DNA of 58,058 bases from an uncultured Pseudomonadota bacterium (GTDB taxonomy: Bacteria > Pseudomonadota > Alphaproteobacteria > Rs-D84): NCBI GenBank assembly GCA_949292385.1, contig CASEZC010000016.1, positions 1 to 58,058 of the forward strand. The letters run 5' to 3'. The notes below the pieces were generated by a model that searched no databases, was not told where the DNA came from, and saw only the letters and a list, made by a program, of their open reading frames with translations. Positions 1 through 37,886 of the stretch are shown piece after piece; within the stretch, counting starts at the first letter, position 1; each line of letters starts with the position of its first letter. The position numbers and the translations under genes are program-made.

Positions 1-47
1 GACTGAAAATCCCTGTGTCAGTGGTTCGATTCCACTTCTAGCCACCA
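1..47 (+). tRNA. tRNA-Phe(GAA), 3' portion only (gene cut by the window edge)
   Basis: Anticodon loop CTGAAAA, T-arm GGTTCGATTCC, 3' acceptor strand and encoded CCA. Nearly colinear with the 3' half of E. coli tRNA-Phe. Confidence 0.8.
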
Positions 48-30580: not shown

Positions 30581-30958
30581 ATGAAAAATATTTTGAAAAA
30601 ACTTGGTTTTGCAGGTGTTGTTGTACTGGCTGGCGCTGGCACAGCATTGGCGGCACAGGCTGGCGGTGTTAGTAATTCTGGTTTGTGCGGGTTGATACAT
30701 CAGATGTACGGGGTTTTTAGAATTTTGCGTACCCTTGCATTTGTGGGTGCTGCATTCATTATCGCTGGATGGGCATGGGGATATATAACTTCTGGTAAAG
30801 GTGTTGATATTGAGGATTTGCGTAAGAAAGGTACTGGTATGTTGGTTGGTTTTATACTATTGTTTGGTATTGGTATAGTTCTTCAGTTCTTCTTAAGTTC
30901 AGCAGGGCAACAGGCGTTAGGGTGTCCAGAAATTTTGCAGTGGGGAATGATGAGTTAA
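30581..30958 (+). CDS. VirB2/TrbC-like type IV secretion pilin candidate
   Basis: 125 aa. Long signal peptide ending ALA-AQAGG (compare Agrobacterium VirB2, AAA-QSAGGG). Then two hydrophobic helices (LRTLAFVGAAFIIAGWAWGYI and GMLVGFILLFGIGIVLQFFL) separated by a charged loop. Architecture-level match only. Confidence 0.45.
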   Translation: MKNILKKLGFAGVVVLAGAGTALAAQAGGVSNSGLCGLIHQMYGVFRILRTLAFVGAAFIIAGWAWGYITSGKGVDIEDLRKKGTGMLVGFILLFGIGIVLQFFLSSAGQQALGCPEILQWGMMS

Positions 30959-30962
30959 AGAT

Positions 30963-30991
30963 AAAAAAGCGGCTTTTATGCCGCTTTTTTT
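30963..30991. terminator. Bidirectional terminator between the VirB2-like and DinD-like genes
   Basis: AAAAAAGCGGC-ttttat-GCCGCTTTTTTT. Confidence 0.8.
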
Positions 30992-31898
30992 ATCTTATGT
31001 TTATATTAGAGAATTGTTTTATAAATTCTTGTCTTTTATTATATAAATCTCTTCGCACATTTTTTATGTGTTCACTTGTTAAATCTTGTTCTGGGAAAAT
31101 CCCTTCTTTTTGAAATAGCTTTATTCTTTGTGAATTAAGTTCTTTTGTTACAGCGTATGAGAAGTCTCTTAATGTCATATTTTTGATTTCATCATATCTT
31201 TTAACAGCAATATTTAATGCTTTTTGTTTTGCCATCAAAGAACGCGAGCCCATATAGTTTGAAATAGGGTCGCCCGGTTCGTAGACTATGCCGTACATAT
31301 TTTTTAAAGTTTCTATATCAATGTCATAGAAAAATGATTTTTCCATCAGTTGATGAAATAATCCCATTTTTGCTTTGTGTCTGTATGCAATTCCGTTGAC
31401 TATTTTTTCAGAACTTGCCAAATCATTACGTAAATATATTCTGGAAAATTTATAAGACGCTTCACTTAAATCGGAAAAACTAGCGTTTGGCATCATAAAA
31501 TATAGTTCTGTAAATATTAGACGTGGGTTTCTTTTTAAAATAGACCAGCATGCAAATCTGCTTAATTTTGCATCGTGTCCATTTTGTATTTGTTTTATAC
31601 CTTTGTCTGTATTTATTGTGTAATTATGAATAATTGTTGTTAAATGTTTTGCATAAAAATCCCAAAAGTATTCTGGTGTTTCTATATCTTCTGGAGTTTT
31701 TCCTTTTGGAATCTTTAAAACAGCATCGCGTAATGCGGTATTTACTGTTTTTGGAATGAATTCGTTACTGCCTACGTTTTCTTTCCCGAATAAGTTGTAT
31801 AAATCTGAAAATAACCAATATTCAGTGTTTGTATTAGGAACTATATATTTTGTGTTATTTAAGTATTCAAATATTATTTGTGGTTTTGGACGTGGCAT
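30990..31898 (-). CDS. DinD-family (DNA-damage-inducible protein D-like) protein
   Basis: 302 aa. Blocks parallel E. coli DinD: KLSRFACWSILKRNP vs VLSRYACYLVVQNGDP, RIYLRNDLASSEKIV vs RLFLRNELKEHNKQLV, and NYMGSRSLMAKQKA vs DHMGSTELAANLFRA. Confidence 0.55.
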   Translation of the reverse strand: MPRPKPQIIFEYLNNTKYIVPNTNTEYWLFSDLYNLFGKENVGSNEFIPKTVNTALRDAVLKIPKGKTPEDIETPEYFWDFYAKHLTTIIHNYTINTDKGIKQIQNGHDAKLSRFACWSILKRNPRLIFTELYFMMPNASFSDLSEASYKFSRIYLRNDLASSEKIVNGIAYRHKAKMGLFHQLMEKSFFYDIDIETLKNMYGIVYEPGDPISNYMGSRSLMAKQKALNIAVKRYDEIKNMTLRDFSYAVTKELNSQRIKLFQKEGIFPEQDLTSEHIKNVRRDLYNKRQEFIKQFSNINIR

Positions 31899-31913
31899 TT
31901 TTATTCTTCTTTT

Positions 31914-32144
31914 TTAGTTGTTTTTGTTTTCGTCTATGTTTGCCAAAGAGAACAATACGGATGAAATTAAAGACTGGTATGGTACGTGTTGTTGTTCTGC
32001 AAGCTTTTTTATGTTCTCTAAAATAGGGCGCGGTATTCGCATGTTAATAACGCAGTCTGATTTGTTAAAAGTTCGATACGCTGCGTATTCTTTTAATAAA
32101 GCTTCTATGTTCATTATGAACAATTGTTGCATAACGTTTGGCAT
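31914..32144 (-). CDS. BrnA-like ribbon-helix-helix (antitoxin-type) protein
   Basis: 76 aa from the ATG at 32144, with AGGAG 7 nt upstream. The ORF-track start at 32162 is a TTG. C-terminal INMRIPRPILENIKKLAEQQHVPYQSLISSVL matches the BrnA/RHH pattern (ISLRLPxxLLxxLKxLAxxxxVPYQSLIK). Confidence 0.6.
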   Translation of the reverse strand: MPNVMQQLFIMNIEALLKEYAAYRTFNKSDCVINMRIPRPILENIKKLAEQQHVPYQSLISSVLFSLANIDENKNN

Positions 32145-32189
32145 ACACAATCTCCTATACAAGACACAATACTTACGTCTTTACAAGTG

Positions 32190-32221
32190 ACTATAACATT
32201 GTATTGGCAATTGTCAATACA
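32190..32221 (-). promoter_or_regulatory. Candidate promoter with overlapping palindromic operator for the RHH/DinD-like operon
   Basis: Minus strand reads TGTATTGACAATTGCCAATACA. It has 7-bp inverted arms TGTATTG/CAATACA around a CAATTG core and contains TTGACA. A 16-nt spacer follows, then TATAGT. Confidence 0.45.
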
Positions 32222-32450
32222 TTTGTAATTATAGGTGTATTTGCGTATGTGAGTACTGTTGTATATTGGTTTGTGTGACAGGTGTTTTTTGTGTTCTGTT
32301 TGTTGTTGTGGGGCGGAACTTTTTGTTTTTTTATGTTTGTTTATGTAAGAAAAATAGTTTGTATGTTCTGTATAATTTTTTTCGCATTCTTGCTTTTTTA
32401 TAAATATACATATAAAATGAAACAGTATTATTTTTGGAAAGGATTTTCTT

Positions 32451-33770
32451 ATGTTTAAAAAATTTTTGACAGTTTTTTCATTTATGGCTGTGTTTGTTTT
32501 ACCTGCACATGCAGAATTAAAAGTTGATATTATCGCTGGCGCTGCAAATCCTATATCGGTTGCTGTGCAAAAGTTTGAAACAGTGGGTAACGTTTCTGCG
32601 GAAGATAGTGCAATGATAAGAGAAGTTGTAGAAGCGGATTTAAAATCAACGGGGCTTTTTAGAATTGTTTCTCATGATGCGTTGCCAGAATTTGTAGAAA
32701 TGGGTAAATTGCCTGATTTTAAATTATGGAATGCGATAAAGGCACAAGTTTTGGTACAAGCAAAATTGTCAGCAGAGTCTGGTGGTAAATATAGTTTAGA
32801 ATTTTATGTTTGGGATGTGAACGGAAAGGAACAGATAGAGGCGCAAAGTTTGGTTGCGTCTAAAAAATCTGCACGTCGTTTGGCTCATATTATGGCTGAT
32901 GCTATTTATGAAAGATTGACGGGTGAAATCGGTTATTTTGATACTCAAATTGTTTTTATTGCTGAAACTGGTCCGATACATAACAGAAAAAAACGTATGG
33001 CAATAATGGACCAAGACGGTTATGGTATGCGTTATTTATCAGATGAAAAAACTTTTGTGATGTCGCCTCATTTTTCACCTAATATGCAAACTATTGTATT
33101 CTTGTCTTATTATAACAATGACCCTATGGTTTGGACGTTGGATTTAGAAACGGGCGAACAGAGAAGGTTAGGACAGTTCGGAGGAATGAACTTTGCACCT
33201 CGTTTTTCACCGGACGGGACAAAAATAGCTTTATCTTTGGTTAAAAATGGTATAACTCATATATATGAATACGATATAGAGACGAAATCTTTGCGTCAGT
33301 TGACGTTTGGTAGTTCTTTGAATACCAGTCCGTCTTATTCGCCAGATGGTAAAAAAATGGCGTTTAACTCTGACCGTAGTGGTAATCAACAAATATTTAT
33401 TCTTGATTTGGAAACAGGAAAGGTAGAGCGTATTACTTATGGGGCAGGGCGATATGCGACACCTGCTTGGTCGCCTGACGGACAGTTTATAGCCTTTACT
33501 AAAATAGCAGATGATACTTTCTATATAGGTATTATGGATCCGCGTGGCAGAAACGAAAAAATTCTTGCAGGGGGGTGGTATATGGAAGCTCCTTCTTGGG
33601 CGCCAGGTTCCAGACGTTTGGTTTATTATGAAACAGAAAAAGCTTTTGATGATATCGAAAGAATAAGTCATATTCGCAGCGTAGATATTACAGGGCAAAA
33701 TGTTTATGATATAGAATTGCCAGAAGGTATAAATGGTGTAGAACCTACATGGTCACCTAGATTGCCATAA
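32451..33770 (+). CDS. tolB: Tol-Pal system periplasmic beta-propeller protein TolB
   Basis: 439 aa. Signal peptide, N-terminal TolB domain, and repeated SPxxSPDGxxIAF propeller blades (FSPDGTKIAL, YSPDGKKMAF, WSPDGQFIAF). Confidence 0.9.
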   Translation: MFKKFLTVFSFMAVFVLPAHAELKVDIIAGAANPISVAVQKFETVGNVSAEDSAMIREVVEADLKSTGLFRIVSHDALPEFVEMGKLPDFKLWNAIKAQVLVQAKLSAESGGKYSLEFYVWDVNGKEQIEAQSLVASKKSARRLAHIMADAIYERLTGEIGYFDTQIVFIAETGPIHNRKKRMAIMDQDGYGMRYLSDEKTFVMSPHFSPNMQTIVFLSYYNNDPMVWTLDLETGEQRRLGQFGGMNFAPRFSPDGTKIALSLVKNGITHIYEYDIETKSLRQLTFGSSLNTSPSYSPDGKKMAFNSDRSGNQQIFILDLETGKVERITYGAGRYATPAWSPDGQFIAFTKIADDTFYIGIMDPRGRNEKILAGGWYMEAPSWAPGSRRLVYYETEKAFDDIERISHIRSVDITGQNVYDIELPEGINGVEPTWSPRLP

Positions 33771-33773
33771 AAT

Positions 33774-34187
33774 ATGAAGTACTTTTTTAATATTTGTTTG
33801 TTTATGCTTTTAGTAATTAATCCTGCCGTTGCGGAATTCGCAACGGTTAATTATATTTTTGACGGAGATACTTTTGCAGCAACTGTTCATTTAGAAGATG
33901 ATATAGATGTTGAGGCAAGAGTTCGTTTGATGAATGTTGATACGCCTGAAATACACGGGGAATGTGACTATGAGATTAAAATGGCGAATTTGTCTCGTGA
34001 TAGAATTTCCGAGCTTTTGCCAATTGGTAGTGTTGTTGAATTAAAAAGCATAAAAGATGATAAATATTTGGGAAGAATAGATGCTTTTGTTTTGTTGCCC
34101 GATGGTAAAGATGTAGGAGAAATTTTAATAAAAGAAAAGCTGGGGCGTGCATATAACGGTGGACGACGTCAGGGGTGGTGTGACTAG
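33774..34187 (+). CDS. Exported staphylococcal-nuclease-like (thermonuclease) protein
   Basis: 137 aa. Signal peptide. Motifs DGDTF, VRLMNVDTPE and DKYLGRIDAFV are typical of the SNase fold. Confidence 0.7.
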   Translation: MKYFFNICLFMLLVINPAVAEFATVNYIFDGDTFAATVHLEDDIDVEARVRLMNVDTPEIHGECDYEIKMANLSRDRISELLPIGSVVELKSIKDDKYLGRIDAFVLLPDGKDVGEILIKEKLGRAYNGGRRQGWCD

Positions 34188-34291: not shown

Positions 34292-34534
34292 ATGACTCAT
34301 AATGAAGTTTGGCGTGCAATAGATATGCTTGCGCGCAAGAACAACATATCTTGTTCTAAATTGGCCGTTTCTTCTGGTTTAGACGCAACGACATTTAATA
34401 AAAGTAAAAGATTTTCTGTTTTTGGTAAGCCTCGTTGGCCTTCGATGCAAAGTATTTCTAAAATTCTAGAGTACACATCTACTACGCCAACAGAGTTTGG
34501 ACATTTCTTGGAAGAGTGCGAAAAGCAAAAATAG
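34292..34534 (+). CDS. Small helix-turn-helix (Cro/CI-type) DNA-binding protein
   Basis: 80 aa. The segment ISCSKLAVSSGLDATTFNKSKR fits an HTH. Confidence 0.6.
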   Translation: MTHNEVWRAIDMLARKNNISCSKLAVSSGLDATTFNKSKRFSVFGKPRWPSMQSISKILEYTSTTPTEFGHFLEECEKQK

Positions 34535-36617: not shown

Positions 36618-37402
36618 GCGTTTTCTATATCTTCAAATTGTTTTGATAATTCATTAAAGTAGTTTTGTGGCTTAGGTCCTTTCCATAATTTTTTATTTTC
36701 TATATTTGTTTTTGTACTTTCGCGTTCGCCTAAGAAAGAAACTTTATGATTTTCAACATGGATTACAGGAAATTTATAAGTTTCCATAAGTTTTGTACTG
36801 TGTGTTGCTAAAATTATAGTCGTACCAAAAACTTTATTCATTTGTATGAAAAGTTCCATCAGTCTGGATGCATTTTCGTCGTCTAAGTTTCCTGTTGGTT
36901 CGTCGGCCAGTAATATTGCAGGCTGAATTATTATTGCACGCGCAACTGACACACGTTGTTGCTGACCGCCTGATAAAGATTTTGGGTTCGCATCAGCGTA
37001 TTTACCAAGACCTACCCATTCAAGAGTTTTTGATACTAATTTTTTTATTTTTGCTTCTGGAATACCGCGAACGCGTAAGGGCAGGGCGATATTATCAAAA
37101 ACCGACTTGTGTGATAATAAAGAATATTCTTGAAAAACAATTGCCATTTTGTGGCGCAAATTAGCAATGTCATCGCGTGTCATATCGTTTGTTACCCGAC
37201 CAAATAACTTTATTTGTCCACGGCATGGCTTGTGCAACTGGTATATTAATCTTAGTAATGTAGTTTTTCCTGCACCAGATGCACCTGATAAGAAATAAAA
37301 AGAACCGTTGCTTATATTAAAAGATACATCTGATAAAACTTCGCGTGAATTATCGTATCTTGCGCCTACGTTAGCAAAAGATATAGCTGTTGTGTTTTCC
37401 AT
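36614..37402 (-). CDS. ftsE: Cell-division ABC transporter ATPase FtsE
   Basis: 262 aa. Walker A GASGAGKTTL, signature LSGGQQQR, Walker B LLADEPTGNLD. About 40 aa of extra C-terminal tail. Confidence 0.88.
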   Translation of the reverse strand: MENTTAISFANVGARYDNSREVLSDVSFNISNGSFYFLSGASGAGKTTLLRLIYQLHKPCRGQIKLFGRVTNDMTRDDIANLRHKMAIVFQEYSLLSHKSVFDNIALPLRVRGIPEAKIKKLVSKTLEWVGLGKYADANPKSLSGGQQQRVSVARAIIIQPAILLADEPTGNLDDENASRLMELFIQMNKVFGTTIILATHSTKLMETYKFPVIHVENHKVSFLGERESTKTNIENKKLWKGPKPQNYFNELSKQFEDIENA

Positions 37403-37460
37403 GTTTCAAATAGTAGTAAAAAAAGAACTTATGGTCAAGTTTCTCTTTATTTTTGCGATT

Positions 37461-37486
37461 AAAAAAAGCGCTTGTAAGCGCTTTTT
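37461..37486 (-). terminator. Rho-independent terminator after pal
   Basis: AAAAAAAGCGCTT-gt-AAGCGCTTTTT. Confidence 0.75.
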
Positions 37487-37487
37487 A

Positions 37488-37886
37488 TTATTCGTCTACA
37501 ACTGTTGTAGAGTTTCTGTTCTTTGCCCATACTTCTTCGCCAGTTCCTAAGTATTGTGGGCGTTCTTTACCGTAAGAAATAGTTTTTATTCTTTCTGGTT
37601 CAATACCATCTCTTATTAAAACATGGGCCGCATTTCCTGCGCGCAAAGCGCCAAGAGCCAAATTGTATTCAACAGAACCGCGTTCGTCGCAGTGACCTTC
37701 CAGAGTGATGTTCTTTCCCGGGTTCTTCTTCATGTACAAAGATTGCTTTTCTAAGTTTTCACGAGATTCTTCTGAAATATGTGCAGAATCAAATTCAAAA
37801 AATACTTTGTCTTCATTTATGTCTTTTGGTACGCCAGAACAAGCGGCTAAACTTAAAACTAGTATTGTAAATAACGCCTTTTTCAT
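37488..37886 (-). CDS. pal: Peptidoglycan-associated lipoprotein (OmpA-family)
   Basis: 132 aa from the ATG at 37886 (AAGGA 7 nt upstream). Lipobox LAAC. OmpA-like domain VFFEFDSAHI...LEGHCDERGSVEYNLALGALRA. Confidence 0.85.
   Translation of the reverse strand: MKKALFTILVLSLAACSGVPKDINEDKVFFEFDSAHISEESRENLEKQSLYMKKNPGKNITLEGHCDERGSVEYNLALGALRAGNAAHVLIRDGIEPERIKTISYGKERPQYLGTGEEVWAKNRNSTTVVDE

Follow-up and report, generated by a model that had tools for sequence, protein, structure and literature searches.

A conserved ribbon-helix-helix gene and its optional DinD-like neighbour behind a palindrome-overlapped promoter in Candidatus Enterousia

In the brnTA toxin-antitoxin (TA) operon the toxin gene comes first, and the antitoxin BrnA carries a C-terminal ribbon-helix-helix (RHH) domain behind an N-terminal helix, with a palindrome at its own promoter. 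In the immI region of phage P22, the gene for the small RHH autorepressor Arc (53 aa) precedes that for Ant (300 aa), and both are served by one promoter within which the Arc operator lies (BK000583). DinD of Escherichia coli is said to assist in the removal of RecA filaments, as outlined in PMC4849656 with reference to Uranga et al. 2011, and DdrC of Deinococcus radiodurans is described in PMC11347143 as a dimer that binds nicks as well as double-strand breaks and compacts DNA, with residues of its C-terminal domain contacting the DNA. The locus analysed here shares features with each of these systems. It is situated in a stretch of 58,058 nucleotides (the window), which is contig C16 of the 776-kb, 46-contig, 91%-complete genome of a Candidatus Enterousia (G000), and it consists of a gene for a 76-aa RHH protein and a gene for a 302-aa DinD-like protein, behind a promoter of which the -35 hexamer lies within a palindrome. 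With modest confidence, the locus is best explained as an autorepressed core RHH regulator gene whose transcript carries an optional cargo gene for a DNA-binding, DinD/DdrC-like protein.

Both genes are encoded on the minus strand. The RHH gene (31914..32144, ATG at 32144-32142; protein P0001) is followed, 15 nt past its stop codon, by the DinD-like open reading frame (ORF; 30990..31898, protein P0002), which has its own ribosome-binding site, and no terminator was found in the region between the two genes. The sigma-70-type promoter on the same strand (32190..32217) consists of a -35 hexamer TTGACA (32217-32212), a 16-nt spacer, and a TG-extended -10 hexamer TATAGT (32195-32190). The -35 hexamer is enclosed by a 22-bp imperfect palindrome with arms TGTATTGACAA and TTGCCAATACA (32200..32221), which is the putative RHH operator. 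In the 5' leader (32145..32189, minus strand), a Shine-Dalgarno sequence AGGAGA (32156-32151) is positioned 6 nt ahead of the RHH start codon. The two ORFs, the 15-nt gap, the promoter, and the palindrome over the -35 hexamer had been described in a first-pass annotation of the window, and all of them were recovered as described. The same annotation read this arrangement as a type II TA or addiction layout, which does not agree with the distribution of the two genes.

This distribution was determined in 201 genomes evenly drawn from the order, 171 of which belong to the family (151 to the genus and 20 to ten other genera). The RHH gene is present as a single copy in 171 of 171 family genomes (151/151 in the genus, 20/20 in the other genera), with 76-92% identity, and was detected in 0 of 26 genomes from four other families of the order; a fifth family gave one weak match among three genomes. 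The profile of the DinD-like protein matched 94 of the 171 family genomes (92/151 in the genus and 2/20 elsewhere), which is an undercount, as very divergent copies such as that of genome G056 are missed by the profile. One of the two matches outside the genus (G067) is on another contig than the RHH gene of that genome. Despite the undercount, real absence of the DinD-like gene is common. Inspection of 15 genomes of the genus without a profile match revealed an empty slot in 12, where the RHH stop codon and the convergent gene that comes next have nothing between them, a divergent copy in one (G056, a 304-aa ORF; hhalign probability 97.3%, E 2.7e-11), a relic in one (G057), and an ambiguous situation in one (G058). 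In the five empty-slot genomes that were examined in sequence, a terminator hairpin lies directly 3' of the RHH stop codon. The RHH protein of the 12 empty-slot genomes shows 81-89% identity and has the same N-terminus. The relic of G057 (L156) is situated ~100-190 nt past the RHH stop codon and retains in frame only the C-terminal codons, ending in ...TERDFILKYSNEKIR and a stop codon, which directly shows loss of the DinD-like gene by internal deletion. Outside the genus, genomes of four other genera (G026, G036, G055, and G084) keep the tolB / RHH pair, and the slot is taken by an unrelated 293-aa ORF that overlaps the RHH stop codon and lacks DinD-like similarity (G026, L165 148-1029; hhalign 0.5%), a 95-aa acyl-carrier-protein-like ORF just past the RHH gene (G055, L167), a tRNA-like sequence, or nothing recognised. 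A fifth genus (G068) gave an RHH match of just 55% identity, in a locus where TolB was not matched.

Thirty-four related loci with a DinD-like gene were collected from metagenome-assembled genomes labelled Candidatus Enterousia or uncultured Alphaproteobacteria. The RHH gene is directly upstream of the DinD-like gene in all 34, and tolB is divergently oriented upstream of the RHH gene in 32, the remaining two loci ending at a contig edge. Identity to the proteins of the window was 77-93% for RHH (one contig-edge locus excepted) and 78-90% for TolB, vs 27-45% for the DinD-like protein. For species pairs with 91-93% identical TolB, DinD-like identity goes down to 46-50%. Rates were estimated by NG86 for 14 species pairs, in 13 of which nonsynonymous divergence (dN) was 0.15-0.51 for the DinD-like gene vs 0.03-0.09 for tolB (the exception being L032/L033), so that by dN the DinD-like gene evolves 5-10 times faster than its neighbours. 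The dN/dS ratio (omega) of the DinD-like gene was 0.09-0.33, compared with 0-0.09 for RHH and 0.02-0.08 for tolB, estimates that are rough because synonymous divergence (dS) is mostly saturated. These values indicate that the DinD-like gene is a functional, fast-evolving gene under purifying but relaxed selection.

The tree of the DinD-like protein largely follows the TolB clades, with five changes vs a minimum of three and 18.4 for shuffled labels. When absence of the DinD-like gene in the first five such genomes is placed on the TolB tree, four state changes are required, of which well-supported branches force at least two. The simplest history would be an ancestor of the genus that already had the DinD-like gene, followed by vertical descent and repeated deletion. 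A separate pattern was seen for L032/L033, in which RHH and DinD-like genes are nearly identical (dS ~0.1; 97-100% protein identity) and tolB has diverged (dS 1.15; 86%), which suggests recent, occasional recombinational exchange of the RHH and DinD-like module between species.

The 76-aa protein had been proposed to be an RHH protein of the BrnA type, and this holds: it matches the Pfam family CopG_antitoxin (PF12441) with 38.5 bits vs a cut-off of 28 over residues 25-64, which include VPYQSLI, and public records call its orthologues 'BrnA antitoxin family protein'. Against the NCBIfam BrnA model (NF047399) it scored 21.8 bits, below the cut-off of 60, and weak matches were obtained with Pfam Arc (E 0.011) and the PHROG 'Arc-like repressor' (E 0.0021). 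The AF2 monomer model (pLDDT 61) was too poor for a fold search; at this low confidence it contains helix 4-26, followed by helices 39-52 and 56-72, which fits a protein with an N-terminal helix and an RHH domain whose strand would form only in the dimer. Among 29 distinct orthologues 45 columns are invariant, including the strand residues V-I-N-M-R-I, which appear to resemble the strand F-N-L-R-W of Arc. In a search of PDB sequences with the RHH profile, Arc repressors appeared only at E 0.7-1.5. The row with the lowest E value (3.6e-6) was k-cTRP5 (8etq), which we take to be a designed repeat protein; this match was rejected as spurious, as no single stretch of it passes alone. The absence of a brnT gene was also borne out, since the BrnT family (PF04365) had no match in the 91%-complete genome, whereas control genomes responded, and no such ORF lies beside the RHH gene. 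Relative to BrnTA, the locus differs in that no BrnT was found, the BrnA cut-off is missed, and the RHH gene is a universal core gene instead of part of a mobile TA locus.

The region upstream of the RHH gene shares this conservation. In a consensus scan of 30900-32500, TTGACA-16-TATAGT was the top promoter-like site with a score of 11/12; the nine promoter-like sites in this interval are no more than in shuffles (7.9 +/- 2.6). The palindrome (32221-32200) pairs at 10 of 11 positions, and it can be regarded as beyond chance because of conservation in related genomes. For this comparison 53 RHH loci were used, including 12 genomes with an empty downstream slot and four other genera. The left operator arm, TGTATTGAC, is invariant in 53 of 53 upstream regions, and TTGACA-16..18-TA(T/G)A(G/A/T)T was likewise found in all 53, with TATAGT as the -10 hexamer in 52 and TATATT in one. 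Among related loci, the 95-130 nt upstream are strikingly conserved. Self-complementarity of the 22-mer ranges from 7 to 10 of 11 pairs and is at least 9 in 36 of the 53 loci; in one subclade the right arm reads TGTATTTACA, making a direct instead of an inverted repeat of the left arm. Across the 776-kb genome there is a single occurrence of the core GTATTG-N8-CAATAC and none of a reversed control pattern, and a search for further operators with at most two mismatches returned 4 sites vs a mean of ~8 for 20 shuffled-arm controls, none of them beyond chance. One palindrome copy with two mismatches is located ~300 bp upstream of recA (C10:60488), which is at chance level at that stringency.

The 5' leader is conserved as well, among 32 species. 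An alignment of 32 leaders (TTGTAA..AC....GTATTG......GTATAGGAG) had a mean column identity of 80%, with TTGTAA invariant and GT.TT accompanied by nearly invariant A and G (GTATTG); TTGTAA, GTATTG, and GTATAGGAG are kept. The leader thereby holds a third GTATTG box, on either side of which lie the arms of a short inverted repeat that is variable and shows some compensatory changes. In this repeat around GTAT, 74.5% of cells are paired vs 25.5-65.1% in slid registers; covariation is modest, and the leader copy of the window itself fits the inverted repeat only in a register shifted by one. RNAalifold did not predict a hairpin on the leader alignment. The inverted repeat in the leader could be one more half-site, or else a small hairpin.

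For the 302-aa protein, the proposed DinD likeness stood at the level of the superfamily: P0002 matches NCBIfam DinD (NF008573) at E 1.2e-7 and 31.4 bits, over residues 105-295 only and under the equivalog cut-off of 242. The PADLOC profile PDC-S13 was matched at E 3.1e-15 and 54.2 bits (residues 102-295 on profile positions 78-276 of 281), and phrog_8036 at E 5.7e-13, whereas no Pfam family, Bro-N (PF02498) included, was obtained at E <= 1. The motif DAKLSRFACW (P0002 residues 109-118) answers the DinD consensus D-x-K-L-T-R-F-A-C-Y, with D-x-K-L-S/T-R-F/Y-A-C as the shared motif, and further positions common to the P0002 family and DinD are YF, Arg, and PE. Profile-profile alignment by hhalign of the Enterousia family with 13 DinD-type proteins gave a probability of 99.55% (E 2.4e-23) over 247 columns (query 30-304, template 21-281), spanning both the Bro-N-type N-terminus and the helical C-terminus. 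Homology of the N-terminal domain rests on this profile-profile alignment, because Pfam Bro-N is called only in distant relatives. P0002 can be placed in the DinD superfamily along its full length, as a remote member that falls outside the DinD equivalog. It shares the two-domain architecture of E. coli DinD/PDC-S13 over its full length, as well as the character of an accessory gene with patchy presence, and differs from E. coli DinD by its score below the cut-off and by an insertion in the N-terminal domain.

Wider searches gave a similar picture. A word-based search with P0002 returned 26 proteins of 35-99% identity, none with a precomputed Pfam domain, and the family profile retrieved 254 proteins at E <= 0.001 from 1.84 billion representatives. 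Of the distant relatives tested, 18 of 19 matched NF008573, 7 of them above cut-off (up to 357 bits), and 11 of 41 matched Bro-N at E <= 0.01, 8 of these above cut-off. In the language-model atlas, the commonest set consisted of clusters automatically named 'Damage-inducible protein D' (26 of 30 matches), with Bro-N on 38% of the members. By sequence, no significant relative was found in the PDB for P0002 (best E 0.22) or for the family profile (best E 0.18). Among phages, the only match to the DinD-like protein was a partial one, in Pasteurella phage Pmp14 (L036, record 36878-37717). This relative is a 279-aa Bro-N protein, annotated as hypothetical, whose gene is immediately past a CI-like repressor gene and adjoins an annotated toxin / repressor pair.

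The AF2 model of P0002 is of high quality (pLDDT 91.5, pTM 0.86). Its C-terminal helical domain (148-266) superposes best on residues 111-226 of DdrC (7qvb_A) with a rmsd of 2.8 A over 102 residues and a Z score of 9.3, which helical bundles can reach by chance; the next row had a Z score of 6.7. Foldseek matched P0002 to DdrC (8u0g_B) with probability 0.97 and E 0.14, and no match was found at E <= 0.001 in the PDB or BFVD. The N-terminal domains of P0002 and DdrC (7QVB, 8U0G) differ, and P0002 did not match NCBIfam DdrC (NF033622), a model that one DinD-type relative matches weakly (E 5e-4). A literature search found no paper discussing DdrC and DinD together; a single review mentions each of them once.

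From these comparisons, the RHH protein would be a lineage-specific repressor of the BrnA/CopG-antitoxin type without a toxin partner, kept beside tolB in every sampled genome of this family of gut alphaproteobacteria with reduced genomes (Candidatus Enterousia and related genera). We infer that RHH dimers bind the inverted repeat over the -35 hexamer, and perhaps also the GTATTG box in the leader, which would close the strong promoter of the gene itself and result in negative autoregulation. In the window, as in about half to two thirds of the species of the genus, the transcript would run on into the DinD-like gene, whose product is predicted to combine a Bro-N-type DNA-binding domain with a helical domain resembling the C-terminal domain by which DdrC contacts DNA. 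The DinD-like gene would be cargo, deleted repeatedly without change in the RHH gene or the operator. DNA binding is the most likely activity of its product, the target being DNA with breaks or nicks or else foreign DNA entering the cell. In that role the product would serve as an accessory factor in DNA damage or against phages, at a level set by the RHH repressor.

Several observations weigh against this explanation. In one subclade the inverted symmetry of the putative operator falls to 7-8 of 11 pairs, and conservation of the palindrome could derive partly from the promoter elements alone. The match to DdrC is limited to the helical C-terminal domain, for which a Z score of 9.3 is reachable by chance. 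The defence role is drawn from association at the level of the family only, because the DinD-like gene here lies outside any defence system: its neighbours are tolB, the RHH gene, a small membrane protein gene, a lipoprotein gene, and fba, and the embedding in defence systems that is associated with PDC-S13 was not seen. Moreover, retention in 171 of 171 reduced genomes would be implausible for a regulator solely of itself, which makes it probable that the RHH protein has an additional role, with other targets or a protein partner.

The context of DinD genes elsewhere was determined in two samples. The first was drawn from Pseudomonadota and held 401 genomes; with two Enterousia set aside, 27 of 399 encode a true DinD. 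Among 23 DinD loci with a full ORF, 9 have neighbours of the restriction-modification (RM) type (HsdM, HsdS, HsdR, or a DNA methylase), in many cases with an overlap of a few bases, and other loci follow ureC, mnmE, gyrB, or lepA. The second sample comprised the best 80 of 589 metagenome relatives, of which 77 had an intact ORF; L128 was dropped as a duplicate of L107, leaving 76 loci. Type I RM or BREX neighbours were present in 10 of these 76, and none of their 98 nearest same-strand neighbours matched PF12441, PF14384, Arc, or CopG RHH families, with one HicB among them. The presence of DinD beside RM and BREX genes fits an accessory, embedded gene, and it agrees with the origin of PDC-S13 as an untested embedding candidate. 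A set of 145 untested 'guilt-by-embedding' defence candidates has been described by Payne et al. (bioRxiv 10.1101/2024.01.29.577857), the main text of which does not mention PDC-S13 by name. The literature search found no paper naming PDC-S13. In contrast to DinD genes in RM/BREX operons, the gene for P0002 stands behind a core RHH gene and is inherited vertically within one genus.

Among 28 neighbours scanned at the genome DinD loci, 1 was an RHH gene. The locus concerned (L049), which is of gammaproteobacterial type, carries a 92-aa PF14384 BrnA-type gene (L049:1195-1476, minus strand) 7 nt past a true DinD gene that itself stands behind an HsdM fragment, with no BrnT between; it is the sole other DinD/BrnA-type pair seen (1 of 23 loci). 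The RHH-DinD pairing is specific to the Enterousia clade. Recurrence of the pairing was confirmed for relatives (34/34 related loci and a DinD-like match in 92 of 151 species of the genus) and not beyond them (0/98 and 1/28).

As a type II TA or addiction module, the DinD-like protein would be a toxin or growth-arresting effector, and the RHH protein would both repress the operon and neutralise its partner by binding. The layout of a small RHH gene, a larger gene 15 nt on, and an operator-overlapped promoter is what such a module would have; both the Pfam family and the orthologues of the RHH protein carry antitoxin names, the extra invariant N-terminal helix of this protein could be a protein-binding module, and L049 offers a true DinD followed after 7 nt by a BrnA-type gene. 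However, the candidate antitoxin is present in 171 of 171 genomes and the candidate toxin in only 94, and loss of the partner should free an antitoxin from selection, whereas RHH omega stays at 0-0.09 and the protein is equally conserved, N-terminus included, in the 12 genomes with an empty slot. There is no sign of co-evolution between the two proteins, because RHH is nearly invariant while its partner diverges to 27% identity. Moreover, the locus is fixed, single-copy, and vertically inherited instead of patchy, RHH genes beside DinD are next to absent elsewhere, and to our knowledge no member of the DinD family is a toxin. The TA explanation is therefore very unlikely. An Arc-Ant-like switch, in which the RHH-repressed promoter of a domesticated prophage remnant would drive a ~300-aa antirepressor that inactivates another repressor, is held to be similarly improbable. 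Bro-N domains are common in phage antirepressor-type proteins. The P22 immI region has a small RHH autorepressor gene first, a second gene of about the same length, and an operator inside the promoter, the RHH strand INMRIP resembles Arc, in line with the weak Pfam and PHROG matches, and the only phage match, in Pmp14, lies directly after a CI-like repressor gene. Homology of the 302-aa protein to P22 Ant was rejected, however (hhalign probability 0.5%), Ant carries P22_AR_N/C, no significant BFVD matches were obtained, and the target repressor would be unknown. The locus also differs from arc-ant in its chromosomal context, with synteny to housekeeping genes and no nearby phage genes, and in that neither Mnt nor the sar antisense RNA has a counterpart.

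A further explanation is a LexA-independent damage module, in which the RHH protein would replace the SOS repressor and release, after damage, a RecA-filament modulator or a DdrC-like binder of breaks. RecA is encoded in the genome (C10:59385-60167), and neither the LexA DNA-binding domain (PF01726) nor S24 peptidase (PF00717) was matched (0 matches each), an absence that is not proven in a genome that is 91% complete; the activities described for E. coli DinD on RecA filaments (PMC4849656) and for the DdrC dimer on nicks and double-strand breaks (PMC11347143) would suit such a module. Control by LexA of the E. coli SOS type was not indicated, the promoter carrying an RHH-type palindrome (no SOS-box search was made). 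Against a damage module, the 76-aa RHH protein has no visible signal-sensing or self-cleaving domain, no regulon is visible and the operator is unique in the genome, ~40% of the species lack the DinD-like gene yet keep RHH, and E. coli DinD is only a remote homologue of the DinD-like protein (31 bits vs 242), which leaves this explanation unlikely. A bolder variant, also regarded as doubtful, holds that the RHH protein was domesticated into an essential regulator throughout the family and took over from LexA-style control, and that the DinD/DdrC-like protein is a sensor of broken or foreign DNA engaged in an arms race. An arms race would explain both the 5-10-fold faster evolution and the repeated loss of the DinD-like gene. 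If true, the locus would constitute a minimal, previously undescribed damage or defence circuit, and a natural system for learning what the DinD/PDC-S13 family does.

The explanation of an autorepressed core regulator with optional cargo has consequences of its own. A gene whose product databases label as 'BrnA antitoxin family' can lack a toxin partner and still be strictly conserved as part of the core genome of an entire bacterial family, and caution is warranted in that TA systems should not be annotated from an RHH gene alone. The RHH protein is one of few lineage-specific regulators in a genome of ~0.8-1 Mb. To the DinD/PDC-S13 family, the locus adds a deeply divergent, vertically inherited branch that sits under a simple, testable promoter and putative operator. 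The series of presence and absence, with the DinD-like gene in roughly half of more than 150 species and with relics and extreme variants, can be used to seek the benefit of the gene, and the link between DinD and DdrC in sequence and structure provides the concrete hypothesis that the DinD-like protein binds nicked or broken DNA.

The locus is part of a block, tolB / RHH / (DinD-like) / small membrane protein / lipoprotein / fba, that is syntenic throughout the genus. The first-pass annotation had considered it an AT-rich islet between fba and tolB with mobile-element ancestry, next to a VirB2-like gene. The neighbours were indeed identified as class-II aldolase (fba) and TolB, and a mild dip in GC content was found (0.30-0.32 over 31000-32200 vs 0.34-0.43 in the flanks), but the locus is not an islet because the tolB-to-fba block is syntenic across the genus. 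Mobile-element ancestry is not supported, the locus being syntenic, fixed, single-copy, and vertically inherited. No target-site duplications were seen flanking the DinD-like gene, no match of the DinD-like protein was found in plasmids by tblastn, and the genes near the locus are housekeeping genes, with no phage genes among them. The supposed VirB2-like gene (30581-30958, plus strand) had no Pfam match at E <= 0.01. It encodes a fairly fast-evolving small membrane protein (43-81% identity) and is no sign of a mobile element because it is syntenic in 31 of 34 related loci, usually followed by the lipoprotein gene and fba.

A predicted bidirectional intrinsic terminator (30963..30990), with an 11-bp stem (5 G-C pairs), a 6-nt loop, and A/T runs on both sides, is common to the operon and the convergent small membrane protein gene. 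Rfam gave nothing near the gathering score over 30800-32500 (best 28 bits vs 54). A conserved hairpin within the DinD-like coding sequence was considered and rejected, being weak and confined to part of the family: the codons of E-R-E-F-I-x-x-F-A form a 7-bp stem only in near relatives of the window (L002, L003, L008, L009, and L013), the window itself having 6 bp, and L005 has a different, A/T-only 7-bp stem. Summed stems in the coding sequences amounted to 150 vs 137.6 +/- 4.6 for synonymous shuffles, in 33 sequences of which many are close kin. A 33-nt direct repeat (31623-31655 and 32113-32145, 27 of 33 positions identical) joins the RHH coding start to the interior of the DinD-like gene, and is probably due to chance in AT-rich DNA. 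Right behind tolB, the window encodes a 137-aa secreted SNase-like nuclease (33774-34187, plus strand; PF00565, E 3.1e-5) that is syntenic in related loci, and this gene is followed by an 80-aa ORF (34292-34534, plus strand) with weak likeness to Cro/C1-type helix-turn-helix proteins (E 0.009).

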